Made by a program: the position numbers and the translations under genes. Source: Mayamaea pseudoterrestris (lineage: Eukaryota). From it: a stretch of DNA of 64,000 nt. The stretch is from assembly GCA_027923505.1 (NCBI GenBank), contig BROI01000008.1, positions 992,001 through 1,056,000 on the forward strand, given 5' to 3'. Below, piece after piece: positions 2,280-47,636 of the stretch. Numbering within the stretch: position 1 is the first letter of the stretch; each line of letters begins with the position of its first letter. The notes below the pieces were generated by a model. The model did not search any database. It was not told the DNA's origin and worked only from the letters and a program-made list of their open reading frames with translations.

Positions 2280-3625
2280 TTATGGCTTGATTCATCAAAT
2301 ATTAACTTGGTCAGTCATCAATGTCATCATTGGCAAAAGGCAAATGGTAACAGTTCTATAATATGGACTTGTTGCATTAAATAAGGACTCCTTGAGCTTG
2401 GTAGGGTTGTAGACCTTTTTAAGGACTCGCTCGTCAACTTTAAAGTCATGAGTCAAGTGCAAGTGGTTTGCCTGAAGCAAACTTTCATTGACAATTGCTT
2501 CTCATTAAACGGAGATAGTGAGGATGTTGGCAACAAGCGGTATATCCAGAAACATGTCGCGTTGAAAGATGACAGTGCCGGGAGAGAGGTTGTCAAGAGC
2601 TCCACTTGATGCAACTCACGTTGTGTGCATTGCTGTCATGAGGCATTGCTTGATTATATTGTCAGCTTCCATAACATCTTTGGGGAGGATGGGCAGGTAC
2701 TAGCGTATGAAGCACATTCCCAATGACAAGATGGCAGCGCTCGCAGATGCTATTAGCAGTGGGCGTCTTGGCCGAAGCGGCTTGCCATTCAATCCCGTTG
2801 TATTCAAGGATGGTTCCAAATGCGCCTTTAAACTATTTGCCTTGATCCGCAACAAGTCGCATTGGTCAAAGATAACGAGAGAGCCAGTTGTCATCAAAGA
2901 GACGTCCGATATGGTACACCGACTTGTCCTGGTAGCAAACAATTTTGACAAGGTTAGTAGCTGGGTCAATCATTGTCAATGCTCTGAAATATCAGTCAAT
3001 GCCATTCACGGATACTTTCCATGGTCCCATGTGATCAATGTGGACCTCATACCAAGGCGCAACGCGCACGTCTCACACTGGCAGCTCTCCATATTGATGG
3101 CTGCCTCCTTTATTGCATTGGCAGGTATCGCAAGCTCCAACAAGATGCTCAACTAGCTGTTGAGCTTAGGAAGGTAAAAGTGGTGCTTGATGCTTGCCGT
3201 GAGGCAAGTCATACCAGTGTGGGCACTGACAAGTGGTGCTAAAGAATCAAACAATCTAAAATCTAAGAATCCAACGATCTAGAATCTCAATGGGGATGTA
3301 GATTTGCCATCACACAATCTAGGATCTCAATGGGGATGCAGATTCGCCAGCGTGCATCTGCTTGGAATACAACAATCTGAACGTCTCCAAGTTGTTTGTA
3401 TTGTATGTTTGTCGCTTCTTGATTTTGGACTGTGGCCATTAGCGCTGCATCTTCTTGTTGATACTCGGCAATGGTTGAATATGACAGGGGATATCTCCCT
3501 TGCTCATCAAACTCTGGATGAAGGAGCAGGCATTCTGCTAGCTCTGGTTTGTCCCATAGGAGACAGTAAGCTTCATTATGCTGGGTCACATCAAGCCATG
3601 TTAACACCCAAATTGCAGAAGTACG
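2280..3625 (-). mobile_element. Decayed Ty3/gypsy LTR-retrotransposon pol relic (integrase region)
   Basis: Minus-strand translation through stops gives PLSYSTIAEYQQED...RICIP (pre-HHCC region), PWYEVHIDHMGPW...ALTMIDPATNL, WLSRYL*PMRLVADQGK*FKG...TPTANSICERCH (rve core) and SPGTVIFQRDMFLD...QVNI**IKP. Confidence 0.85.
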
Positions 3626-6600
3626 GTGCAACTTCTCACCAGTCTCAGCCAGCAGCTGCCATGCCTTTCAAATGCCCATACCTTGACCCATGTGTACGCC
3701 CAAATCAAGCCAGATTGGTGCCAGCATCCATATTCAAAATGCGCAACAAGATAAGCTGACTGGCTGGTGCCTTGGTGGACTGCAATGTGATTGGTGATAA
3801 CTGGTCACCAGTCTCAGCCATTGTGCTCCCATGCCTTTCAAATGCCCATTGCTTGAGCCATGTGTATGCCCAAATCAAGCCAGAATACGCTAACATCCTC
3901 ATTTTCAGGTGCGCTACAAGAAAAGATGACTGGCTGGTGTCTCAGTGGAATGCAATGTGATGGTAATAACTTGTCACCAGTCTCAGCCAGCAGCTGCCAT
4001 GCCTTTCAAATGCCCATACCTTGAGCCATGTGTATGCCCAAATCAAGCCAGAATGGTAATGAAACCCTTATTTGCCATCATCACTATTCAGTCTATGCTA
4101 CAAGATGGTATGCCTGGTGGGCGCCCTTTTACTCTGCAATGTGATTGGTGACAAGGTGTCACCAGTCTCAGCCAGCAGATGCCTTGACATTCAATTGCCC
4201 ATCAAACATGCCAGGTATACACCCAAATCACACCAGAATTGGCGCCAACATCATTATTCAGTCTGCGCTACAAGATGGTATGCCTGGTGGGTGCCCTTGT
4301 AGACTGCAATTGGACTGGTGAGAACTTCCCACCAGTCTCAGCCCACAGATGCCCTGACATTCAATTGCTTCTAAAACATGCCATGTATGCACCCAAATCA
4401 TGCCAGAATGGTGCCAACCTAATTATTCAGTCTGCGCTAAAAAGTGGTATGCCTGGTGGGTGCCCTAGTAGACTGCAATGCAATTGGTGACAAGTTGTCA
4501 CCAGGTTTAGCCCGCATATGCCTTGCCATTCAATTGCTTCTAAAACATGCCAGGTATGCACCCAAATCACATCAGAATGGTGCCAACATCATTACTCAGG
4601 CTGCGCTACAAGATGGTAAGCTTGGCTTGTGTCTCAGGGGATGGCAATGTATTTGGTGACAACTTGTCACCAGTCTCAGCCCGCAGATGCCATGACATTC
4701 AAACACACCTACAGCAGGCCCTGTAGGTGCCCATATTACACCAGAATGGTGCCAACATCATTATTCAGGCTGCGCTACAAGATGGTAAGCTTGGCTGGTG
4801 TCTCAGGGGATGGCAATGTATTTGGTGACAACTTGTCACCAGTCTCAGCCCGCAGATGCCATGACATTCAGACACTCCTACAACAGGCCCTGTAGGAGCC
4901 AAAGATACACCAGAATGGTGCCAACATCATTACTCAGGCTGTGCTACAAGATGGTAGGTTTGGCTGGTGTCTCAGGAGATGGCGATGTATTTGGTGACAA
5001 CTTGTCACCAGTCTCAGCCCGCAGATGCCATGACATTCAGACACACCTACAGCAGGCCCTGTAGGTGCCCAAATTACACCAGAATGGTGCCAACATCATT
5101 ATTTAGGCTGCGCTACAAGATGGTAGGCTTGGCTGGTGTCTCAGGGGATGGCAATGTATTTGGCGACAACTTGTCACCAGTCTCAGCCCGCAGATGCCAT
5201 GACATTCAGACACTCCTACAGCAGGCCCTGTAGGTGCCCAAATTACACCAGAATGGTGCCGACATCATTAATCCGGCTGCGCTACAAGATGGTAGGCTTG
5301 GCTGGTGTCTCAGGGGATGGCAATGTATTTGGTGACAACTTGTCACCAGTCTCAGCCCGCAGATGCCATGACATTCAGACACTCCTACAGCAGGCCCTGT
5401 AGGTGCCTATATTACACCAGAATGGTGACAACATTATTATTCAGGCTGCGCTACAAGATGGTAGGCTTGGCTGGTGTCTCAGGGGATGGCAATGTATTTG
5501 GTGACAACTTGTCACCAGTCTCAGCCCGCAGATGCCATGACATTCAGACACACCTACAGCGGGCCCTGTAGGTGCCCAAATTACACCAGAATGGTGCCAA
5601 CATCATTATTCAGGCTGCGATACAAGATGGTAGGCTTGGCTGGTGTCTCAGGGGATGGCAATGTATTTGGCGACAACTTGTCACCAGTCTCAGCCCGCAG
5701 ATGCCATGACATTCAGACACTCCTACAGCAGGCCCTGTAGGTGCCCAAATTACACCAGAATGGTGCCAACATCATTAATCCGGCTGCGCTACAAGATGGT
5801 AGGCTTGGCTGGTGTCTCAGGGGATGGCAATGTATTTGGTGACAACTTGTCACCAGTCTCAGCCCGCAGATGCCATGACATTCAGACACATCTACAGCAG
5901 GCCCTGTAGGTGCCCATATTACACCAGAATGGTGCCAACATCATTATTCAGGCTGCGCTACAAGATGGTAGGCTCGGCTGGTGTCTCAGGGGATGGCAAT
6001 GTATTTGGTGACAACTCGTCACCAGTCTCAGCCCGCAGATGCCATGACATTCAGACACACCTACAGCAGGCCCTGTAGATGCCCAACTTACACCAGAATG
6101 GTGCCACCATCATTTTGGAGGCTGAGCTACAAGATGGTAGGCTTGGCTGGTGTCTCAGGGGATGGCAATGTATTTGGTGACGACTTGTCACCAGTCTCAG
6201 TCGCAGATGCCATGACATTCAAACACACCTACAGCAGGCCCTGTAGGTGCCCATATTACACCAGAATGGTGCCAACATCATTTTTCAGGCTGCGATACAA
6301 GATGGTAGGCTTGGCTGGTGTCTCAGGGGATGGCAATGTATTTGGTGACAACTTGTCACCAGTCTCAGCCCGCAGATGCCATGACATTCAGACACTCCTA
6401 CAGCAGGCCCTGTAGGTGCCTATATTACACCAGAATGGTGCCAACATCATTATTCAGGCTGAGCTACAAGATGGTAGGCTTGGCTGGTGTCTCAGGGGAT
6501 GGCAATGTATTTGGTGACAACTTGTCACCAGTCTCAGCCCGCAGATGCCATGACATTCAGACACTCCTACAGCAGGCCCTGTAGGTGCCTATATTACACC

Positions 6601-9600
6601 AGAATGGTGCCAACATAATTATTTTGGCTGCTCTACAAGATGGTAGGCTTGGCTGGTGTCTCAGGGGATGGCAATGTATTTGGTGACAACTTGTCACCAG
6701 TCTCAGCCCGCAGATGTCATAACATTCAGACACACCTACAGCAGGCCCTGTAGGTGCCCATATTACACCAGACTGGTGCCAACATCATTATTCAGGCTGC
6801 GCTCAAGATGGTAGGCTTGGCTGGTGTCTCAGGGGATGGCAATGTATTTGGTGACAACTTGCCACCAGTCTCAGCCTTCAGATGCCATGACATTCAGACA
6901 CTCCTACAGCTGGCCCTGTAGGAGCCCAAAATACACTGAAATGGTGCCGCCATCATTTTTCAGGCTGCGCTTCAAGATGGTAGGCTTGGCTGGTGTCTCA
7001 GGGGATGGCAATGTATTTGGTGACAACTTGTCACCAGTCTCAGCCCGCAGATGCCATGACATTCAGACACACCTACAGCAGGCCCTGTAGGTGCCCAAAT
7101 TACACCAGACTGGTGCCAACATCATTTTTCTGGCTGCGCTACAAGATGGTAGGCTTGGCTGGTGTCACAGGGGATGGCAATGTATTTGGTGACAACTTGT
7201 CACCAGTCTCAGCCCGCAGATGCCATGACATTCAGATACACCTACAGCAGGCCCTGTAGTTACCCAAATTACATAAGAATGGTGCCAACATCATTATTCA
7301 GGCTGCGATACAAGATGGTAGGCTTGGCTGGTGTCTCAGGGGATGGCAATGTATTTGGTGACAACTTGTCACCAGTCTCAGCCCGCAGATGCCATGACAT
7401 TCAGACACTCCTACAGCTGGCCCTGTAGGTGCCCAAATTACACCAGACTGGTGCCGCCATCATTTTTCAGGCTGCGCTACAAGATGGTAAGCTTGGCTGG
7501 TGTCTCAGGGGATGGCAATGTATTTGGTGACAACTTGTCACCAGTCTCAGCCCGCAGATGCCATGACATTCAGACACTCCTACAGCAGGCCCTGTAGGTG
7601 CCCAAATTACACCAGAATGGTGCCACCATCATTTTTCAGGCTGCGCTACAAGATGGTAGGTTTGGCTGGTGTCTCAGGGGATGGCAATGTATTTGGTGAC
7701 AACTTGTCACCAGTCTCAGCCCGCAGATGCCATGACATTCAAACACACCTACAGCAGGCCCTGTAGGTGCCCAAATTACACCAGAATGGTGCCAACATCA
7801 TTTTTCAGGCTGAGCTACAAGATGGTAGGCTTGGCTGGTGTCTCAGGTGATGGCAATGTATTTGGTGACAACTTGTCACCAGTCTCAGCCCGCAAATGCC
7901 ATGACATTCAGACACTCCTACAGCAGGCCCTGTAGGTGCGCAAATTACACCAGAATGGTGCCAACATCATTATTCAGGCTGCGCTACAAGATGGTAGGCT
8001 TGGCTGGTGTCTCAGGGGATGGCAATGTATTTGGTGACAACTTGTCACCAGTCTCAGCCCGCAGATGCCATGACATTCAAACACACCTACAGCAGGCCCT
8101 GTAGGTGCCCAAATTACACCAGAATGGTGCCAACATCATTTTTCAGGCTGAGCTACAAGATGGTAGGCTTGGCTGGTGTCTCAGGTGATGGCAATGTATT
8201 TGGTGACAACTTGTCACCAGTCTCAGCCCGCAGATGCCATGACATTCAGACACTCCTACAGCAGGCCCTGTAGGAGCCCAAAATACACCAGAATGGTGCC
8301 AACATCATTTTTCAGGCTGCGCTACAAGATGGTAGGCTTGGCTGGTGTCTCAGGGGATGGCAATGTATTTGGTGACAACATGTCACCAGTCTCAGCCCGC
8401 AGATGCCATGACATTCAGACACACCTACAGCAGGCCCTGTAGGTACCCATATTACACCAGACTGGTGCCAACATCATTTTGCAGGCCGCGCTCAAGATGG
8501 TAGGCTTGGCTGGTGTCTCAGGGGATGGCAATGTATTTGGTGACAACTTGTCACCAGTCTCAGCCCGCAGATGCCATGACATTCCGACACTCCTACAGCA
8601 GGCCCTGTAGGTGCCCATATTACACCAGAATGGTGCCAACATCATTATTCAATCTGCGCTACAAGATGGTAGGCTTGGCTGGTGTCTCAGGGAATGGCAA
8701 TGGATTTGGTGACAACTTGTCACCAGTCTCAGCCCGCAGATGCCATGACATTCAGACACTCCTACAGCAGGCCCTGTAGGTGCCCAAATTACACCAGAAT
8801 GGTGCCAACATCATTATTCAGGCTGCGCTACAAGATGGTAGGCTTGGCTGGTGTCTCAGGGGATGGCAATGTATTTGGTGACAACTTGTCACCAGTCTCA
8901 GCCCGCAGATGCCATGACATTCAAACACACCTACAGCAGGCCCTGTAGGTGCCCAAATTACATAAGAATGGTGCCAACATCATTTTTAGGCTGCGCTACA
9001 AGATGGTAGGCTTGGCTGGTGTCTCAGGGGATGGCAATGTATTTGGTGACAACTTGTCACCAGTCTCAGCCTGCAGATGCCATGACATTCAAACACACCT
9101 ACAGCAGGCCCTGTAGGTGCCCAAATTACACCAGACTGGTGCCAACATCATTTTTCAGGCTGCGCTACAAGATGGTAGGCTTGGCTGGTGTCACAGGGGA
9201 TGGCAATGTATTTGGTGACAACTTGTCACCAGTCTCAGCCCGCAGATGCCATGACATTCAAACACACCTACAGCAGGCCCTGTAGGTGCCCAAATTACAT
9301 AAGAATGGTGCCAACATCCTTGATCTGGCTGCGCTACAAGATGGTAGGCTTGGCTGGTGTCTCAGGGGATGGCAATGTATTTGGTGACAACTTGTCACCA
9401 GTCTCAGCCTGCAGATGTCATGACATTCAAACACACCTACAGCAGGCCCTGTAGGTGCCCAAATTACACCAGACTGGTGCCAACATCATTTTTCAGGCTG
9501 CGCTACAAGATGGTAGGCTTGGCTGGTGTCACAGGGGATGGCAATGTATTTGGTGACAACTTGTCACCAGTCTCAGCCCGCAGATGCCATGACATTCAGA

Positions 9601-12600
9601 CTCACCTACAGCAGGCCCTGTAGGTGCCCAAATTACACCAGAATGGTGCCAACATCAATATTCAGGCTGTGCTACAAGATGGAAGGCTTGGCTGGTGTCT
9701 CAGGGAATGGCAATGTATTTGGTGACAACTTGTCACCAGTCTCAGCCCGCAGATGCCATGACATTCAAACACACCTACAGCAGGCCCTGTAGGTGCCCAA
9801 ATTACACCAGAATGGTGCCAACATCAATATTCAGGCTGTGCTACAAGATGGAAGGCTTGGCTGGTGTCTCAGGGAATGGCAATGTAATAAGTGACAACTT
9901 GTCACCAGTCTCAGCCCGCAGATGCCATGACATTCAAACACACCTACAGCAGGCCCTGTAGGTGCCCAAAATACACCAGACTGGTGCCAACATCATTATT
10001 CAATCTGCGCTACAAGATGGTAGGCTTGGCTGGTGTCTCAGGGAATGGCAATGTATTTGGTGACAACTTGTCACCAGTCTCAGCCCGCAGATGCCATGAC
10101 ATTCAGACACTCCTACAGCAGGCCCTGTAGGTGCCCAAAATACACCAGAAGGGTGCCAACATCATTAATAATGCTGCGCTACAAGATGGTAGGCTTGGCT
10201 GGTGTCTCAGGGGATGGCAATGTATTTGGTGACATCTTGTCACCAGTCTCAGCCCGCAGATGCCATGACATTCAGACACTCCTACAGCAGGCCCTGTAGG
10301 TGCCCAAATTACACCCGAATGGTGCCAACATCCTTGATCTGGCTGCGCTACAAGATGGTAGGCTTGGCTGGTGTCTCAGGGGATGGCAATGTATTTGGTG
10401 ACAACTTGTCACCAGTCTCAGCCTGCAGATGTCATGACATTCAAACACACCTACAGCAGGCCCTGTAGGTGCCCAAATTACACCAGACTGGTGCCAACAT
10501 CATTTTTCAGGCTGCGCTACAAGATGGTAGGCTTGGCTGGTGTCACAGGGGATGGCAATGTATTTGGTGACAACTTGTCACCAGTCTCAGCCCGCAGATG
10601 CCATGACATTCAGACTCACCTACAGCAGGCCCTGTAGGTGCCCAAATTACACCAGAATGGTGCCAACATCAATATTCAGGCTGCGCTACAAGATGGAAGG
10701 CTTGGCTGGTGTCTCAGGGAATGGCAATGTAATAAGTGACAACTTGTCACCAGTCTCAGCCCGCAGATGCCATGACATTCAAACACACCTACAGCAGGCC
10801 CTGTAGGTGCCCAAAATACACCAGACTGGTGCCAACATCATTTTTCAGGCTGCGCTACAAGATGGTAGGCTTGGCTGGTGTCTCAGGGGATGGCAATGTA
10901 TTTGGTGACAACTTGTCACCAATCTCAGCCCGCAGATGCCATGACATTCCGACACTCCTACAGCAGGCCCTGTAGGTGCCCAAATTACACCAGGATGGTG
11001 CCAACATCATTATTCAATCTGCGCTACAAGATGGTAGGCTTGGCTGGTGTCTCAGGGAATGGCAATGTATTTGGTGACAACTTGTCACCAGTCTCAGCCC
11101 GCAGATGCCATGACATTCAGACACTCCTACAGCAGGCCCTGTAGGTGCCCAAAATACACCAGAAGGGTGCCAACATCATTAATAATGCTGCGCTACAAGA
11201 TGGTAGGCTTGGCTGGTGTCTCAGGGGATGGCAATGTATTTGGTGACATCTTGTCACCAGTCTCAGCCCGCAGATGCCATGACATTCAGACACTCCTACA
11301 GCAGGCCCTGTAGGTGCCCAAATTACACCCGAATGGTGCCAACATCATTATTCAGGCTGCGCTACAAGATGGTAGGCTTGGCTGGTGTCTCAGGGAATGG
11401 CAATGTATTTGGTGACAACTTGTCACCAGTCTCAGCCCGCAGATGCCATGACATTCAGACACTCCTACAGCAGGCCCTGTAGGAGCCCAAAATACACCCG
11501 AATAGTGCCAACATCATTATTCAGGCTGCGCTACAAGATGGTAGGCTTGGCTGGTGTCTCAGGGGATGGCAATGTATTTGGCGACAACTTGTCACCACTC
11601 TCAGGACCCAGATGCCATGACACACCTTACAGCAGGCCCTGTATGTACCCATATTACACCAGAATGGTGCCAACATCATTTTTCAGGCTGCGCTACAAGA
11701 TGGTAAGCTTGGCTGGTGTCTCAGGGGATGGCAATGTATTTGGTGACAACTTGTCACCAGTCTTAGCCCGCAGATGCCATGACATTCAGACACACCTACA
11801 GCAGGCCCTGTAGATGCCCAAATTACACCAGACTGGTGCCAACATCCTTGATCTGGCTGCGCTACAAGATGGTAAGCTTGGCTGGTGTCTCAGGGGATGG
11901 CAATGTATTTTGTGACAACTTGTCACCAGTCTCAGCCCGCAGATGCCATGACATTCAAACACTCCTACAGCAGGCCCTGTAGGTGCCTATATTACACCAG
12001 AATAGTGCCAACATCATTAATCCGGCTGCGCTACAAGATGGTAGGCTTGGCTGGTGTCTCAGGGAATGGCAATGTATTTGGTGACAACTTGTCACCAGTC
12101 TCAGCCCGCAGATGCCATGACATTCAGACACTCCTACAGCAGGCCCTGTAGATGCCCAAAATACACCAGAATGGTGCCACCACCATTTTTGAGGCTGCGC
12201 TACAAGATGGTAAGCTTGGCTGGTGTCTCAGGGGATGGCAATGTATTTGGTGACAACTTGTCACCAGTCTCAGCCCGCAGGTGCCATGACATTCAGACAC
12301 TCCTACAGCAGGCCCTGTAGGTGCCCAAATTACACCAGACTGGTGCCAACATCCTTGATCTGGCTGCGCTACAAGATGGTAGGCTTGGCTGGTGTCTCAG
12401 GGGATGGCAATGTATTTGGTGACAACTTGTCACCAGTCTCAGCCCGCAGATGCCATGACATTCAGACACTCCTACAGCAGGCCCTGTAGATGCCCAAATT
12501 ACACCAGAATGGTGCCACCACCATTTTTGTGGCTGCGCTACAAGATGGTAAGCTTGGCTGGTGTCTCAGGGGATGGCAATGTATTTGGTGACAACTTGTC

Positions 12601-15600
12601 ACCAGTCTCAACCCGCAGATGCCATGACATTCAGACACTCCTACAACAGGCCCTGTAGGAGCCCAAAATACACCAGACTGGTGCCAACATCATTGATCCG
12701 GCTGCGCTACAAGATGGTAGGCTTGGCGGGTGTCTCAGGGGATGGCAATGTATTTGGTGACAACTTGTCACCAGTCTCAGCCCGCAGATGCCATGACATT
12801 CAGACACTCCTACAGCAGGCCCTGCCCTGTAGGAGCCCAAAATACACCAGAATGGTGCCAACATCAATAATCAGGCTGCAATACAAGATGGTAGGCTTGG
12901 CTGGTGTCTCAGGGGATGGCAATGTATTTGGTGACAACTTGTCACCAGTCTCAGCCCACAGATGCCATGACATTCAGACACACCTACAGCAGGCCCTGTA
13001 GGTGCCCAAATTACACCAAATAGGTGCCAACATCTTTTTTCAGGCTGCGCTACAGGATGGTAGGCTTGGCTGGTGTCTCAGGGGATGGCAATGTATTTGG
13101 TGACAACTTGTCACCAGTCTCAGCCCGCAGATGCCATGACATTCAGACACACCTACAGCAGGCCCTGTAGGTACCCATATTACACCAGACTGGTGCCAAC
13201 ATCATTATTCAGGCTGCACTTAAGATGGTAGATTGGCTGGTGTCTCAGGGGATGGCAATGTCTTTGGTGACAACTTGTCACCAGTCTCAGCCCGCAGATG
13301 CCATGACATTCAGACACTCCTACAGCCGGCCCTGTAGGAGCCCAAAATACACCAGAATGGTGCCACCATCATTTTTCAGGCTGCGCTACAAGATGGTAGG
13401 CTTGGCTGGTGTCTCAGGGGATGGCAATGTATTTGGTGACAACTTGTCACCAGTCTCAGCCCGCAGATGCCATGACATTCAGACACTCCTACAGCAGGCC
13501 CTGTAGGTGCCTATATTACACCAGAATGGTGCCAACATAATTATTTTGGCTGCTCTACAAGATGGTAGGCTTGGCTGGTGTCTCAGGGGATGGCAATGTA
13601 TTTGGTGACAACTTGTCACCAGTCTCAGCCCGCAGATGCCATGACATTCAGACACTCCTACAGCAGGCCCTGTAGGAGCCCAAAATACCCAGAATGGTGC
13701 CAACAACAGTATTTAGGCTGCGCTATAAGATGGTAGACTTGGCTGGTGTCTCAGGGGATGGCAATGTATTTGGTGACAACTTGTCACCAGTCTCAGCCCG
13801 CAGATGCCATGGCATTCAAACACACCTACAGCAGGCCCTGTAGGTGCCCAAAATACACCAGAATGGTGCCAACATCATTATTCAGGCTGCACTTAAGATG
13901 GTAGACTTGGCTGGTGTCTCAGGGGATGGCAATGTATTTGGTGACAACTTGTCACCAGTCTCAGCCCGCAGATGCCATGACATTCAAACACACCTACAGC
14001 AGGCCCTGTAGGTGCCCAAATTACACCAAATAGGTGCCAACATCTTTTTTCAGGCTGCGCTATAAGATGGTAGGCTTGGCTGGTGTCTCAGGGGATGGCA
14101 ATGTATTTGGTGACAACTTGTCACCAGTCTCAGCCCGCAGATGCCATGACATTCAAACACACCTACAGCAGGCCCTGTAGGTGCCCATATTACACCAGAA
14201 TGGTGCCAACAACATTTTTCAGGCTGCGCTACAAGATGGTAGGCTTGGCTGGTGTCACAGGGGATGGCAATGTATTTGGTGACAACTTGTCACCAGTCTC
14301 AGCCCGCAGATGCCATGACATTCAGACACACCTACAGCAGGCCCTGTAGGTGCCCAAATTACACCAGAATGGTGCCAACATCATTATTCAGGCTGCGCTA
14401 CAAGATGGTAGGCTTGGCTGGTGTCTCAGGGGATGGCAATGTATTTGGTGACAACTCGTCACCAGTCTCAGCCCGCAGATGCCATGACATTCAGACACAC
14501 CTACAGCAGGCCCTGTAGATGCCCAACTTACACCAGAATGGTGCCAACATCATTTTGGAGGCTGAGCTACAAGATGGTAGGCTTGGCTGGTGTCTCAGGG
14601 GATGGCAATGTATTTGGTGACAACTTGTCACCAGTCTCAGCCCGCAGATGCCATGACATTCAGACACTCCTACAGCAGGCCCTGTAGGTGCCCAAAATAC
14701 ACCAGAATGGTGCCAACATCATTATTCAGGCTGCGCTACAAGACGGTAGGCTTGGCTGGTGTCTCAGGGGATGGCAATGTATTTGGTGGCAACTTGTCAC
14801 CAGTCTCAGCCCGCAGATGCCATGACATTCAGACACTCCTACAGCAGGCCCTGTAGGAGCCCAAAATACACCAGAATGGTGCCACCATCATTTTTCAGGC
14901 TGCGCTACAAGATGGTAGGTTTGGCTGGTGTCTCAGGGTATGGCAATGAATTTGGTGACAACTTGTCACCAGTCTCAGCCCGCCGATGCCATGACATTCA
15001 ACCACACCTACAGCAGGCCCTGTAGTGGCCCATATTACACCAGAATGGTGCCAACATCATTATTCAGGCTGTGCTAAAAGATGGTAGACATGGCTGGTGT
15101 CTCAGGGGATGGCAATATAGGTGCCCATATTACACTAGAATGGTGCCAACATCTTTGATAAGGCTGCGCTACAAGATGGTAGGTTTGGCTGGTGTCTCAG
15201 GGGATGGCAATGTATTTGGTGACAACTTGTCACCAGTCTCAGCCCGCAGGTGCCATGACATTCAGACACACCTACAGCAGGCCCTGTAGGTGCCCAAAAT
15301 ACACCAGAATGGTGCCTACATCATTGTTGAGGCTGCGTTAGAAGATGGTAGGCTTGGCTGGTGTCTCAGGGGATGGCAATGTATTTGGTGACAACTTGTC
15401 ACCAGTCTCAGCCTGCAGATGCCATGACATTCAAACACACCTACAGCAGGCCCTGTAGGTGTCCAAAATACACCAGAATGGGTGCCAACATCATTATTCA
15501 GGTTGCGCTACAAGATGGTAGGTTTGGCTGGTGTCTCAGGGGATGGCAATGTATTTGGTGACAACTTGTCACCAGTCTCAGCCCACAGATGCGAAGACAT

Positions 15601-15962
15601 TCAATTGCCCATATATCTTGCCATATAAGCACCTAAATCATACCAGAATCAACATCATTACTCAGTCTGCGCTACAAGATGTTATGCCTGTTGGGTGCCC
15701 TAGTAGACTGCAATGTGATTGGTAGCAAGTTGTCACCAGTCTCAGCCTGCAGATGCCGTGACTTTCAATTGCCCATATAACATGTCATGTATACATATAA
15801 ATCACACCAGAATGGTGCCAACATCATTATTCAGTCTGCGCTACAAGAAAAGATGACTGGCTGGTGTCTCAGTGGACTGCATTGTGATTGGTGATAACTG
15901 TCACCAGTCTCAGCCAGCACCAGCCATGCCTTTCAAAGGCCCATACCTTGAGTCATGTGTAT
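3625..15962. repeat. Satellite array, 169-bp monomer, about 73 copies (homogeneous core ~4600-15600)
   Basis: Direct 169-bp periodicity (ORF-track starts 4629, 4798, 4967...). Core consensus GTGTCTCAGGGGATGGCAATGTATTTGGTGACAACTTGTCACCAGTCTCAGCCCGCAGATGCCATGACATTCAGACACWCCTACAGCAGGCCCTGTAGGTGCCCAAATTACACCAGAATGGTGCCAACATCATTATTCAGGCTGCGCTACAAGATGGTAGGCTTGGCTG. Confidence 0.98.
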
Positions 15963-42004: not shown

Positions 42005-42163
42005 GGTCGGAACGGTTTTTAAATGGCGTATCTTGCGATCGAGGGAAATTCTCCGGTAGTGAATTGTACTTCTTTGACGTTGAGAAACAAATCAAGAGAG
42101 CTATCGATGTATACAGAATGAAGGCGGGCTTGTATGCCTGTTGCTTCGAGGCGCAAAGATCTG

Positions 42164-42374
42164 TGTTGGATCTAGAATATATCTTGCGCGCCCTTGAAGC
42201 GACACTAATGATTAAGCAGAACAGAGTCAATAAAACCACTTTACTTATTTTCTCCAAGAAGTGATCGTCCTCGATCCACTCCTTCGGTTGCCGCTTACCG
42301 CGCTTACTTAAATGTGACCGTCTTCGTGACGTCACCGCTGCCGCTTCGGTTTGGGTTCTCATCCATGCTCAACA
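42164..42374 (-). repeat. 3' LTR
   Basis: TGTTGG...TCAACA, direct repeat of 47179-47389. Confidence 0.95.
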
Positions 42375-45300
42375 CACTCCTTTGGGCCGAGTAGTACTTA
42401 CTGCTCGAGGCCAGATTCATAACCAGGTTGCGGAGCTTGCCAAACTGGGCTCCCTGCAATGGTTTCGTGAAGAAATCCGCGACCATGTCTCCGGTCGGAC
42501 AATGCTCAATGTTGACTTCACCAGCTGCCACGCGATCTTTCACAAAGAAGTACCGAACATTCATGTGTCGCGTGCGCTTTGTACTTGAGCTTCTGCCATT
42601 CTTTTCCAACAGCATTGAACTCATATTGTCTTGATACAATTTCGTGTCTTTGACCCCGAAACCTTGCGCCTTCAGAAAATATCCTGTCCACAGCAACTGC
42701 GGTAGCACATCATGAACTCCCACAACTTCGCTCTCCGTCGAGCTTCTTGTTACCAACTTCTGTTTAGCCGACGTACTGTACACTGATCCTTGGCCAAGTG
42801 TCATTGTTCCACCAGTGTGACCCTTCATGTCTGGGTGCACCGCGTACGACGCATCCACCCACCACTGGACTATCCCGGACTGGTCCGCCTTCAGCGTCAA
42901 CACCATGTCCACGCTTCCGCGTAAATATTTAATCACTCTTGCAGCCTTCTTATAGTCGTCTTCGTCAGGCTGCTGCAGCCTCGTGCTCAAGAAAGAAATC
43001 GCTGTGCGAATATCCGGTCGCGCTCGCTGACTCAGATACAGACACTGCATCACAATCGTCACAAAAATCTGCTTCTTCGCTTCGCTCAACATGACAGGAT
43101 TTTCCGATATCTGAAACAAGTGACTGGCTGCCGGAGTAGCTGCCGTTCCATCCATGTCGTCTGGCGCATGATGCAGGATGTTCTTCACATAGTCAACCAT
43201 GTTGATTGCTACTTCTCCAGGCTTAGTATAGTCCAATACCATGCCGAGGTAGTCGTGCACTTTTCCGCGTGACTTATTCATTGGAGTCTCCTTGCCAAAC
43301 TCCTCATCCATCTGCGCGATGAACTCATCCACTACGCTCACGTCGACGTGCGAAATCTTCAAATCGTCCACGTGCCATCCCACGGTGATTTGCTTCCCAT
43401 TGACAATCTTGTTGCACACACACGGATCGTACGGGTTCTTCTCGAAGCCCCACTCAAGCAATTTTGCGGACAACTTCTCCCAGAATAGTCGCGCTGCTCG
43501 AAGCGTACCATAAAGCGCCATGAGTAATTCAACATACATGACTTTCTCGCCATTCTCCATTGTGACGCAAGGCTCGTACATCTCGCGATCAATTTCCAAC
43601 AGTAGCTCCACCATCTTCCCAGTGAAACGAACGTGCACCAACTCATCCATTTCCGCTTGCATGAAAGCACCCGGTACATCAACCACAGCAACCTCGCGCC
43701 CTTCCATAGCGTCAATGATAGCTGTCAGAAAGATGGCCTCTGTCGCTATCGTTGGAGATGCTGCGTCTTCCTTTGCAGTGTATGCTCGTTGCTTGCGTCC
43801 ATCCGCGCATCCGCGTCCCTTCACAGTCCCGCATCTCTTGCGCTTGAGAAACATCAAATACGCCAGAGCGTCCTTGCGCTGCTGCGGAGTCAGAGTGCAT
43901 TGGGGGACTGCCTTCATGACGTGCCTGTCGTGTAGCTGCTGCATTTCCTTGCGCACTGCCTCCACTCCAGCATCGCCAAAAGCCTTTAAACCTTGTCGCA
44001 TATTCATCTGTGCCGTGACGAGTGGCTCCGACACTTCCTCTGCAGCGTCGAGCGTGAACAAATGAGCGAACGAGCGAGGTTTGCGCGCACGCAGGCCATA
44101 CCGACCAGTGCGTGGGCCATAGCGCGCATCGAAATCCTCTTCGTCTGCAGCAGCTGGCACTCCTTCAATTTCGCCTTCATCGGGCACTCCTTCAATTTCG
44201 CCATCATCCACGGCTGGCGCGTCGTCAAGTTCGCCGTCAATGGCCTCACCATCCTCGTCGTTCGGCACTCCTTCGATTGCGCCGTCAGCACCATCGTCGT
44301 CGTCGTCGTCGTCATCGGTCGCATTCACTCCTTCGCTTCCGCCGGCAGAGTCGTCGTCACCGCGAGAAGCGTCGTCATCATAATCAGAGTCATCATCATC
44401 CTCGGCGTCATCTTCGTGCCACATGACTGGCTCAGCAGCCTCCGCAACACGGTGGCGGTCCATGAACACGATGCCCGGATTGGCCTTCTGTTGACGAGCG
44501 AGACGATGCACGCGCTCAATGACATCATCAGGCATGGGCAAAGGCGTAGCGTGCCCACGATTCAGAACTTTGCCCGAAGACAAACTGAGGAAATAAAACC
44601 CACCCTGCACATTACCAGTCGGGCGCAGAGCCAGCGCACCGATCGTGCGCGCCTGCATGTCATTGCTGTGCGACTCATGCGTTTGCACATACTGACCAAA
44701 TTCATACTTGCAATGCCGATTAAAGTCAACTGTCTGACCAGTCACAATAGTGCGTGGACTGAGATCCTTCGAAATGCCACGCTCGTTCGGAAACGCATTC
44801 AACCAAAACACGGCAGACTTCGTCATTTCGATAACCAAGCGTGCCGGCACGTGCTTAAATGGCAACGTGTTGTATGTCGCGCGCACCCGTTCTTTCACGA
44901 CACGGATAAAACGTTCAATTTCGCCAACGTGTTCATCCTCAGATGTCGCATTGAGCGCCACTCCGAGATCAGCCAACGCGCCAAGCATTGGAGCGAACTC
45001 CCCATCCATCAGAGCCGCGACGACACGGAACCCACCGCGTGCGTAAATCTTCAACACAGACTCGATTGCCTTCAACATAACCGGAAGCGTACGGTTTTGA
45101 ATCACCTCAACCGTAGCAAAACGAATGCTGCGGGAGAACGTCACCAACATAGGGACTTTGTTGATATACATGATGTCAGCACAAAGAGTAACGTCTCGAT
45201 AGCGACTCATGATAGCCGGTGGAAGCTGCTCAACAATCGCAGGCTTCACCAGATGCGACGCGCGACGCGTCGTCTTTCCTTTTAACGAGCCAACATCTGG

Positions 45301-47151
45301 TCCAAAGATGTGCTCAGCAGCCAGGATGTCGGCCTTCGTCACAGGACAGTTCGGCAACTGATTGCTAGTAACGATGCGCAGGTAATCCTTGAGGCTTGGC
45401 CGTCCAATTTTGATTTGCAGTTCCCTAGCTCTAACAGCGCGTAAATAGTCATCATTGGTGTAGTTAGTACGGTTATCGTCTACCGTAGTCAACATCGCCA
45501 CTCCATCCTTGACATCGCTGCGCTTGCCCTTCGAAAAGCTCTCGCAAACATACAGCCCAGAGTCAGTCTCGACAAACTCTCGCTGCTTACCATCCGGCTT
45601 CTCCACAACGAACATTGGACGATCCACGCCGTGCATGAGATACTCCACGGTAAACTTCTTGCGGACTTGCGCCAAACTCAAAATGTTCGCCAGTCCCTGC
45701 GGATACCACCACACCGGACCATAGCCCTCCAGGTCGCCCATCATGTTCGTCCTTACTGTACCAGCGTTGCACTTGATCACCATCCACGTTGGCACCGGGC
45801 GAATGTTCGTCAGCATCTTGGCGTTGCAGAACAGATCCACTGTCGACTGATTGTCCAAGAGCACAGCCTTCTTCGAGATGTTCACCTTCGGCGGCTGCGC
45901 GAACATGTATCCGACCTCATCGTCGTCATCGCTTTCTTCCTCGCTACCCAGCGTGAAGTGCTGCGCCCCACTAGCCTCTGCAGCCGGCGCACTCTCCGTA
46001 GACTCCGTTCTCGTAGGACAGTCTCGCTGCACATGACCAACCTGTTGACAGGTCCAGCATCTGGGAGGGTCACGCGCTGTACCAGTCGTGTGAAACGCCA
46101 CGCCCTCGTTCGTTGGCAACGTGGCTTCTCCATCCGCATGCTCACGACGCTGCATGATGTTGTATGCATCGTGGATCGTCAACGGGAAGTTGTCGTGCCC
46201 GTCGAGGTAGCAGTTGCGCAAGTGCTTGCAATACCCAGCGTATTCGCCCGTTGCGCCACGCACGAAAAGCATCGCAAGCTCGAGCTCTTCGGCGGCCTTG
46301 ATATCCTCCTTGTTCGCCTTGTTACGATTGTCATCCTTGGCAATGTTCAACGCCACAATCTCGTTGTGCATCGTGACGCCAACCGCCTTCGCCACGTCTG
46401 CCAGCGTGACCATGCTTTCGTAATATTTCTGCAGGCTTTCGCGCGCTCCTTGAGTACGTCCGAACAACTCAGCTTGAATGTCCACGACTTGATCCACAAG
46501 TTTGCAGCGCCCTTCGTACGTATGCGAGATCTCCTTGATAATCGCCAGCAACTTAATTCCGTCCGTGTCCTCCTCGGCGTCTCGGAACTTGGCGTGCGAC
46601 TTGACACGATCCTTCATACGCTCCGTGCATTGTCCATGCAACACGGCGTAGAGACCAGCGAGGAAGTCGGAGTATACACGCACGCGCTCGACATGCTCTT
46701 TCTTGTCGGCCTTGTATTCCTCGAGCATTATGGACCAGTCCGAGTCCGTCGTGTCGGCATCCTTCGTTGGACGTGCAGGCTCGTCAGGAATCTCCAGTTC
46801 CACGTTGCGCATGCCCTTGAGCAGCTCCTTGGTATATTTCTTGTAGGAGCGCCCGACGAAAGTGATGATCTCGTTCGTCGTACGGATGAATCCATCGGGA
46901 TCGCGCGAACCGTTATAGTCGTAGATGAATCCAGCGAGCGTCGGCTCGCTTCCTTGGAAATTTCCACTCGGCGCACGACTCGGTCCGTTGAGTCTGTTAC
47001 CATTGCCTTGATTCCCGGAACGATTCCCAGCACGATTCCCACGACGATAATGACGGTTGCGTCGGTTTCCTTCGCTTGCTGGCGGAGCGGGAGGTGCACC
47101 TCCACCGCTCGACGCCGCTCCTGTCGTCGGAGTATTGCTCGTCGAAGACAT
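42304..47151 (-). CDS. Copia Gag-Pol polyprotein (1615 aa)
   Basis: CWTCQQVGHVQRDC zinc knuckle, LLDNQS protease, integrase D-D-E core, RT HVDD and RNase H VDASY...ADFFTKPL, in the PR-IN-RT-RH order. Confidence 0.97.
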   Translation of the reverse strand: MSSTSNTPTTGAASSGGGAPPAPPASEGNRRNRHYRRGNRAGNRSGNQGNGNRLNGPSRAPSGNFQGSEPTLAGFIYDYNGSRDPDGFIRTTNEIITFVGRSYKKYTKELLKGMRNVELEIPDEPARPTKDADTTDSDWSIMLEEYKADKKEHVERVRVYSDFLAGLYAVLHGQCTERMKDRVKSHAKFRDAEEDTDGIKLLAIIKEISHTYEGRCKLVDQVVDIQAELFGRTQGARESLQKYYESMVTLADVAKAVGVTMHNEIVALNIAKDDNRNKANKEDIKAAEELELAMLFVRGATGEYAGYCKHLRNCYLDGHDNFPLTIHDAYNIMQRREHADGEATLPTNEGVAFHTTGTARDPPRCWTCQQVGHVQRDCPTRTESTESAPAAEASGAQHFTLGSEEESDDDDEVGYMFAQPPKVNISKKAVLLDNQSTVDLFCNAKMLTNIRPVPTWMVIKCNAGTVRTNMMGDLEGYGPVWWYPQGLANILSLAQVRKKFTVEYLMHGVDRPMFVVEKPDGKQREFVETDSGLYVCESFSKGKRSDVKDGVAMLTTVDDNRTNYTNDDYLRAVRARELQIKIGRPSLKDYLRIVTSNQLPNCPVTKADILAAEHIFGPDVGSLKGKTTRRASHLVKPAIVEQLPPAIMSRYRDVTLCADIMYINKVPMLVTFSRSIRFATVEVIQNRTLPVMLKAIESVLKIYARGGFRVVAALMDGEFAPMLGALADLGVALNATSEDEHVGEIERFIRVVKERVRATYNTLPFKHVPARLVIEMTKSAVFWLNAFPNERGISKDLSPRTIVTGQTVDFNRHCKYEFGQYVQTHESHSNDMQARTIGALALRPTGNVQGGFYFLSLSSGKVLNRGHATPLPMPDDVIERVHRLARQQKANPGIVFMDRHRVAEAAEPVMWHEDDAEDDDDSDYDDDASRGDDDSAGGSEGVNATDDDDDDDDGADGAIEGVPNDEDGEAIDGELDDAPAVDDGEIEGVPDEGEIEGVPAAADEEDFDARYGPRTGRYGLRARKPRSFAHLFTLDAAEEVSEPLVTAQMNMRQGLKAFGDAGVEAVRKEMQQLHDRHVMKAVPQCTLTPQQRKDALAYLMFLKRKRCGTVKGRGCADGRKQRAYTAKEDAASPTIATEAIFLTAIIDAMEGREVAVVDVPGAFMQAEMDELVHVRFTGKMVELLLEIDREMYEPCVTMENGEKVMYVELLMALYGTLRAARLFWEKLSAKLLEWGFEKNPYDPCVCNKIVNGKQITVGWHVDDLKISHVDVSVVDEFIAQMDEEFGKETPMNKSRGKVHDYLGMVLDYTKPGEVAINMVDYVKNILHHAPDDMDGTAATPAASHLFQISENPVMLSEAKKQIFVTIVMQCLYLSQRARPDIRTAISFLSTRLQQPDEDDYKKAARVIKYLRGSVDMVLTLKADQSGIVQWWVDASYAVHPDMKGHTGGTMTLGQGSVYSTSAKQKLVTRSSTESEVVGVHDVLPQLLWTGYFLKAQGFGVKDTKLYQDNMSSMLLEKNGRSSSTKRTRHMNVRYFFVKDRVAAGEVNIEHCPTGDMVADFFTKPLQGAQFGKLRNLVMNLASSSKYYSAQRSVLSMDENPNRSGSGDVTKTVTFK

Positions 47152-47178
47152 GTCTTTTCACTCGCTTCTTGGAGAAAA

Positions 47179-47389
47179 TGTTGGATCTAGAATATATCTT
47201 GCGCGCCCTTGAAGCGACACTAATGATTAAGCAGAACAGAGTCAATAAAACCACTTTACTTATTTTCTCCAAGAAGTGATCGTCCTCGATCCACTCCTTC
47301 GGTTGCCGCTTACCGCGCTTACTTAAATGTGACCGTCTTCGTGACGTCACCGCTGCCGCTTCGGTTTGGGTTCTCATCCATGCTCAACA
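47179..47389 (-). repeat. 5' LTR
   Basis: Direct repeat of 42164-42374. Confidence 0.95.
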
Positions 47390-47636
47390 ATCTGTCACAT
47401 CAGCCATGGTGGATTGCGAAACGACCATCATTGAGACGCGATAAGACATAATCACGTTTCATACTTAGCAGGTTTGACAATGTTGTGACAATGACCGCCG
47501 CGACGACTGCCGCCAAGACGAATGACCATGCGGGCGGTTACGCAAGATCCCCCTCACTGCACCAACATCACCAGGTCCGAAAAAGCAACGACAAAGAATA
47601 TATATTTTACCTCCTGCCTCCCCTCTACCTTTCAGA

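Follow-up and report, generated by a model that had tools for sequence, protein, structure and literature searches.

How reverse transcription is started in an LTR retrotransposon whose 5' LTR is not followed by a tRNA-type primer binding site (PBS) is the question raised by one element in the window, the 64-kb stretch of DNA analyzed here. The original prediction had been that a tract at the PBS position pairs with a tract inside the element's own LTR, and that a mechanism like that of fission yeast Tf1, in which the transcript primes its own copying, may operate in a diatom copia lineage. The element, which lies on the reverse strand of the window, is composed of the following parts:

42164–47389, reverse strand: complete LTR retrotransposon of 5226 bp, with an identical LTR pair, TG...CA ends, a 5-bp duplication and one long open reading frame (ORF)
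47179–47389, reverse strand: 5' LTR of 211 bp (TGTTGAG...TCCAACA), a direct repeat 100% identical to 42164–42374
42164–42374, reverse strand: 3' LTR of 211 bp, 100% identical to the 5' LTR and entered by the gag-pol ORF for 71 nt
47390–47394, reverse strand: target-site duplication CAGAT, upstream copy, read from the sequence
42159–42163, reverse strand: target-site duplication CAGAT, downstream copy, read from the sequence
42304–47151, reverse strand: gag-pol ORF of 1615 residues (P0001), a single ORF
46015–46062, reverse strand: CCHC zinc knuckle of Gag, residues 364–379 (PF00098, E 3.7e-5)
43165–43836, reverse strand: copia-type reverse transcriptase, residues 1106–1329 (PF07727, RVT_2; E 3.4e-16, 60 bits against a cut-off of 31.6)
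42375–42383, reverse strand: polypurine-rich tract AAAGGAGTG adjoining the 3' LTR, read from the sequence and presumed to be the plus-strand primer site
47342–47349, reverse strand: palindrome TGACGTCA at LTR positions 41–48, in the presumed U3, read from the sequence

The element is a diatom LTR retrotransposon of the Ty1/copia type, young and intact. Assignment to Ty1/copia follows the RVT_2 reverse transcriptase, the TG...CA LTR ends, the 5-bp target duplication and the CCHC gag, while a recent insertion can be deduced from the identical LTRs, the intact ORF and the intact target duplication. The closest database protein to P0001, 99% identical, is named as a hypothetical protein of Mayamaea pseudoterrestris, and a Nitzschia protein is related to it at 55% identity; a diatom host is indicated by these two matches. 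There was no second copy of the element within the 64-kb window.

A PDB profile search of the polyprotein returned gag and zinc-knuckle matches only, including a weak match of the gag region to the Copia VLP protein 8vvw (E 0.0022), and no integrase. Neither residues 420–1000 nor residues 1330–1615 gave any Pfam domain at E values up to 10, and an rve domain in particular was not detected by Pfam in residues 420–1000 even at E 10. Among the ESM-Atlas look-alikes of residues 600–900, some clusters carry rve, SH3_retrovirus or gag_pre-integrs in 13–78% of their members, which we treat as a lead only. Since the 286 residues that remain after the reverse transcriptase are too few for RNase H plus integrase, the copia order gag-PR-IN-RT-RH, with integrase upstream of the reverse transcriptase, is likely.

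Three further features of the element are recorded as observations in their own right. Residues 428–438 (45838–45870) contain LLDNQSTVD where the D-S/T-G motif of a retroviral-type protease would be expected; in an alignment of 37 polyproteins, D433 and S436 never vary, and N434, Q435 and T437 hardly do. Pfam found no protease domain in P0001, and the conserved motif may represent an unusual protease active site. The gag-pol ORF runs across the polypurine tract and 71 nt of the 3' LTR (42304–42383), and the junction of the two encodes RSVL, which is conserved in the 37-protein consensus; the LTR start is therefore constrained both by coding and by the integrase. Finally, the perfect palindrome TGACGTCA is present in both LTRs (47342–47349 and 42327–42334), some 65 nt before the presumed start of transcription, and that it is a bZIP-type promoter element is a conjecture.

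On the element strand, the 5' LTR (...TCCAACA) is followed by TTTTCTCCAAGAAGCGAG (TTTT...) and not by TGG, as had been noted originally; nine more bases separate TTTTCTCCAAGAAGCGAG from the gag ATG. The tracts that matter for the question of priming are these:

47165–47179, reverse strand: 3' arm and candidate PBS, ATTTTCTCCAAGAAG, starting at the terminal A of the LTR; exact complement of the 5' arm
47262–47276, reverse strand: 5' arm and proposed self-primer at LTR positions 114–128, exact complement of 47165–47179 and paired in the minimum free energy (MFE) and centroid folds
42247–42261, reverse strand: 3' LTR counterpart of the 5' arm tract, located by a 15-mer search
47277–47279, reverse strand: initiator-like TCA directly 5' of the arm, a motif also seen in relatives, with the A at 47277 as the putative transcript start

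Direct comparison of the two arms bore out the predicted perfect 15-nt reverse complementarity, and in blastn the pairing stretched to 17 of 18 nt with a single mismatch (LTR positions 111–128 against 47162–47179), in agreement with the two additional nucleotides that had been predicted beyond a mismatch. Throughout the 64-kb window, the arm 15-mer occurs three times, i.e. once in each LTR and once as the complement at the PBS. Dinucleotide shuffling (100 shuffles) gave an expectation of 0.01 occurrences, and none of the shuffles contained three matches. Likewise, when the 350 nt upstream of the ATG were shuffled, an inverted repeat of at least 15 nt with an arm in the last 60 nt was obtained in none of 300 cases. 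The complementarity between LTR and PBS in the window is thus far beyond chance. The 129-nt leader of the window element folds with an MFE of −31.8 kcal/mol, and the arm duplex is present in this fold.

Relatives of the element were collected by a homologue search with residues 560–1600, which yielded 684 related polyproteins. Of these, 37 were aligned, and the alignment was used to scan metagenome contigs, giving 77 loci with best-segment identities of 35–67%. Many of the loci reside on contigs of about 5.1–5.5 kb with mutually repeated ends, which are elements assembled through a collapsed LTR; such contigs were read across the join. Every locus was then scanned blind for exact inverted repeats of at least 11 nt enclosing a loop of 30–260 nt. 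The architecture of the window element was found in 35 of the 77 loci (36 of 78 sequences with the window included), and consists of (C)TCA, a perfect arm of 14–18 nt, a spacer of 52–158 nt (U5), ...CAAC and the complementary arm. Best-segment identity of the arm-bearing loci to the window polyprotein ranges from 35% (L057, L074) to 63% (L019).

An LTR-to-gag junction is contained in 42 of the sequences, among which 36 have perfect arms, two have decayed arms, one is partial and three are negative. The loci other than those with perfect arms are distributed as follows:

30 loci: no gag 5' end on the contig, thus not assessable
6 loci (L022, L023, L039, L045, L058, L070): contig ends fewer than 170 nt before the ATG
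2 loci: decayed arms, with 13 Watson-Crick and two G:U pairs in L016, whose LTRs are 93% identical, and a one-base bulge in L069
1 locus (L044): 5' arm present, site of the PBS arm absent
3 loci (L011, L034, L071): upstream sequence present, without arms

Four of the six cut loci have CAAC(A) and an A/T-rich tract at the right place, and the three loci without arms may be rearranged copies. Inverted repeats of at least 14 nt outside the canonical places are few, and occur in L020 (an AGCT repeat), L044 (2653/2886) and L055. The last of these is a 15-nt perfect inverted repeat (2948–2962 and 3126–3140) that lies downstream of the end of pol and departs from the CA / CAAC rule; it may mark a variant or a rearranged copy. 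A match in L063, with 13 Watson-Crick and two G:U pairs, falls within coding sequence, looks like chance and was rejected.

The LTR/PBS covariation across related elements that had been put forward as a check of the original prediction was indeed found in these 35 loci. The 36 perfect pairs comprise 31 distinct arm sequences, the window counted, with lengths of 14 nt (five), 15 nt (16), 16 nt (eight), 17 nt (one) and 18 nt (one). Pairs were counted in an anchored register and not on a MAFFT alignment of the 31 leaders, in which several arms were misplaced for want of any sequence common to the arms. Within the 14 inner positions of the 31 distinct arms, every one of the 434 pairs between an arm and its own partner is Watson-Crick, compared with 45% of positions when arms of different loci are combined (mean 6.3 of 14, maximum 11 of 14; 930 combinations). 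Three or four pair types are represented at 12 of the 14 inner positions. The arms read, for example, TATTTAATTTAAAAT in L001, TTCGATAAAGAATAT in L019 and CTCTTTTTACGAAAT in L003, L013, L017 and L018; the arm of L014 differs from CTCTTTTTACGAAAT at three positions, each of which is matched by a change in the PBS arm. No G:U pair is present within any of the 36 perfect arm pairs. The sole copy with G:U pairs is L016, which is old, given that its LTRs are only 93% identical.

Both edges of the pairing are fixed. At the inner edge, the PBS arm begins at the terminal A of ...CAACA in 26 of the 31 distinct cases and just after it in three, so that 29 of the 31 arms lie directly behind CAAC or CAACA. 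Wherever the end of the LTR could be set independently by the repeat (the window, L009, L016 and L067), it coincided with the first base of the arm (4/4). At the outer edge, the 5' arm comes after TCA in 18 cases and after another nCA in three, and includes the A of (T)CA in seven. A CA thus marks the outer edge of the 5' arm in 28 of 31, with C at −3 in 79% and T at −2 in 86%. Apart from these two positions, base composition upstream of the A is ordinary, and downstream it is A/T-rich; a TATA-like motif near −30 was not enriched in the 28 aligned promoters. The (C)TCA at the arm edge fits the eukaryotic initiator consensus. From this initiator-like motif and the logic of the arm edges, we infer a transcript start at about 47277 in the window element.

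We also folded leader RNAs from the initiator A to the end of the PBS. The arm duplex was present in both the MFE and the centroid structure of all 20 leaders, with z-scores of −2.7 to −7.2, and in all 20 it closed the whole R/U5 leader.

Judging from the covariation and from the fixed position of the arms in relatives, which lend support to the mechanism originally proposed, we consider it likely that reverse transcription in this lineage is initiated by Tf1-like self-priming from the 5' end of the transcript. Transcription would begin with the A of the LTR's conserved CTCA or with a base beside it, in the window near 47277. Folding back across some 82 nt of R/U5, the first 15–16 nt of the RNA would then anneal to the tract starting at the last base of the LTR. 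Cleavage of the RNA after the paired tract by the RNase H of the element would provide a free 3'-OH, the extension of which through U5 and R would yield minus-strand strong-stop DNA. During plus-strand synthesis, the primer would be copied back into DNA, such that the PBS would be rewritten from the 5' end of the RNA in each cycle. Retroviral PBSs are, in the same way, copied from the tRNA during plus-strand synthesis. Re-templating of the PBS would account for pairing that is always perfectly Watson-Crick, for arms that change in step, and for the agreement between the outer edge and the putative start of transcription. An RNA that terminates shortly beyond the arm would leave only a short R for the first strand transfer.

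The long-range duplex might instead be a structural RNA element with another job, the minus-strand primer being something else. Masking of a poly(A) signal in the 5' R, control of gag translation and packaging or dimerization are conceivable functions of such a helix, and several properties of the arms would suit them: the duplex closes the entire leader in each of the 20 folds, the arms are A/T-rich and overlap an AATAAG in the window element, and the PBS arm is close to the gag ATG (2–45 nt in the 11 loci with a placed ATG, 13 nt in the window). However, a helix of this kind should tolerate G:U pairs, mismatches and variable ends, whereas all 36 intact copies have perfect arms of 14–18 nt; the lack of G:U pairs and mismatches, together with the sharp outer edge, exceeds what a structural helix needs but is what re-copying of the PBS from the primer should produce. 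Moreover, the inner edge is fixed at the end of the LTR, where a PBS must lie, and the window element has no other candidate PBS, since the 13 nt between arm and ATG leave no room for one. We regard a purely structural role as unlikely. Slightly less probable again is a primer that derives from the element but acts in trans, from a co-packaged second RNA, or that stems from the 3' R tract at 42247–42261. The same 15-mer is indeed present in the 3' LTR, and hence would belong to the 3' R should R begin at the arm, and cis and trans pairing look the same at the level of sequence. Yet in 28 of 31 cases the pairing ends, on its outer side, at the initiator-like CA, as one would expect if the 5' end of the primer is the 5' end of the RNA, and a copy in the 3' R would precede more R and the poly(A) tail, and would still need cleavage.

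A third possibility is that the tract is a conventional PBS for the 3' end or an internal half of a host tRNA, of the sort found in Drosophila copia, Osser or Bianca elements, and that its match to the LTR is incidental. tRNAs are conserved, and a conserved tRNA or tRNA half serving as the primer would require a PBS sequence common to the lineage. Priming by half-tRNAs does have precedents in several copia lineages (PMC6317226). Nevertheless, the PBS of the window element does not start with TGG, nor does any of the 36 PBS tracts, and a 15-nt match to the LTR is expected by chance only about 0.01 times per window. No common sequence was found among the PBS tracts, the 31 distinct ones sharing on average 6.3 of 14 positions while each is perfectly complementary to its own LTR. 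Because the tracts differ and yet match their own LTRs, a tRNA or tRNA half is excluded, if indirectly, as the primer of the lineage. This covariation comes close to refuting the conventional explanation, which we consider very improbable.

Tf1 and Tf2 of Schizosaccharomyces pombe have no tRNA PBS; the PBS pairs with the first bases of the element's own folded-back mRNA, and in Tf1 RNase H cleavage after the paired tract generates the primer (PMC7175516, PMC4600332). Self-priming is established for Tf1; for other gypsy-type elements, namely the Tf1/sushi group, Tj1 and Tcn1, it has been deduced. The window element shares the geometry of Tf1, namely an arm at the presumed start of the RNA, a U5 loop and a PBS at the end of the LTR. 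In contrast to the 11 nt of Tf1, the arms of the present lineage measure 14–18 nt, and the pairing here includes the terminal A of the LTR. Furthermore, members of the Tf1/sushi group are gypsy chromoviruses, with the domain order RT-RH-IN and a chromodomain integrase, whereas the reverse transcriptase of the window element is of the copia type (RVT_2) and is situated in the C-terminal third of the polyprotein. With such a reverse transcriptase, the element is not a member of the Tf1/sushi group, although it apparently works like one.

Besides gypsy-group Tf1, to which the original prediction referred, there is a precedent within copia itself: self-priming has been predicted for the plant Ty1/copia TAR lineage, which includes Houba and Osr-1 (PMC6317226). 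In that survey, 12% of all plant elements were called self-primed, based on complementarity of at least 10 bp to the 5' LTR at a distance of 0–5 bp from its end; at this place, the window element has 15 nt of perfect complementarity. Compared by description, the TAR lineage thus belongs to the same superfamily and has the same type of predicted primer, called by the same rule, but its hosts are land plants. Fungal GalEa elements are copia elements that likewise are without a tRNA PBS, and have at the PBS position a Conserved Hairpin Site, which takes in the last A of the 5' LTR (PMC5445492). The GalEa motif is a local palindrome or hairpin for which its authors detected no partner tract in the LTR, whereas the partner of the window PBS lies in the LTR, 52–158 nt upstream in the lineage.

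Among diatom elements, the CoDi elements of Phaeodactylum and Thalassiosira (Maumus et al. 2009) are described as being from 5182 bp in length, with LTRs from 153 bp, TG/CA ends and a CCHC gag (PMC2806351). By these descriptive features, the window element is likewise a diatom copia-like element of similar size, with short LTRs, TG/CA ends and a CCHC gag. The main text of the CoDi paper (PMC2806351) contains none of the terms "primer binding site", "tRNA" or "priming". Repeats, mainly Ty1-Copia, make up 19% of the M. pseudoterrestris assembly according to its genome report (PMC9724779). Our full-text literature search found no report linking self-priming to diatom or stramenopile elements. The proposed mechanism is of a known kind, in a lineage and a host group for which the literature search found no earlier report.

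The stretch is present in five sequencing runs, the kind of which is not on record, and Logan contigs of four of them (X1–X4) were compared with the window. The contigs of run X1, from a single study, cover 42236–47266 without flanks, where uncovered parts prove nothing; they end within the LTRs, at position 124 of the 5' copy and position 139 of the 3' copy. These ends would fit a short R that starts near the arm, but were not counted as evidence. In X3 and X4, the LTR (47179/47185–47389) forms a separate contig, and X2 contigs depart from the window sequence at the LTR edges 42163, 42375 and 47390 and continue into other sequence. In X2–X4, the summed contig depth over the element exceeds that of the flanks by a factor of tens to thousands, contig depth being unreliable and the kinds of run not on record. 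The X2 edges together with the X2–X4 depth suggest further copies, solo LTRs and/or strong expression.

Elsewhere in the window, two other features were noted:

1490–1564: tRNA-Ala (CGC) gene; the window contains no other tRNA gene
4136–15937: tandem satellite with a 169-bp unit and a diverged edge at 3636–4055

The satellite comprises about 65 copies at 93% match over 4136–15116, followed by about five more diverged copies up to 15937. Its period is nucleosome-sized, in a small diatom genome.

Beyond the single element, and with less assurance than for the mechanism itself, we lean slightly towards a wider reading of the arm pairs, in which a widespread copia lineage of diatoms, and probably of other stramenopiles, would self-prime from the first 14–17 nt of its transcript, would have acquired this ability independently of Tf1/sushi and possibly of plant TAR, and would be represented in the window by a currently competent copy, with its identical LTRs and open ORF. 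If this holds true, PBS length would be a readout of how far the RNase H cut lies from the transcript start, and a single generation would suffice for any change in the LTR arm to be passed on to the PBS.

To our knowledge, self-priming has been shown experimentally only in gypsy-type elements of fission yeast, and elsewhere rests on inspection of sequences. The present results add 31 distinct natural arm pairs, all of them perfect and with both edges fixed, from a copia-type lineage of a major algal group. Confirmation would extend self-priming, whether newly evolved or kept from an ancestor, to both LTR superfamilies and to a third eukaryotic supergroup. Annotation of such elements would be simple (CTCA plus arm ... 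CAAC plus complementary arm), and DNA sequence would suffice to predict their transcript starts. A further consequence is an explanation of why LTR finders that look for a PBS with the help of tRNA libraries would find no tRNA-type PBS in these elements. The finding also matters for judging which diatom elements remain mobile.
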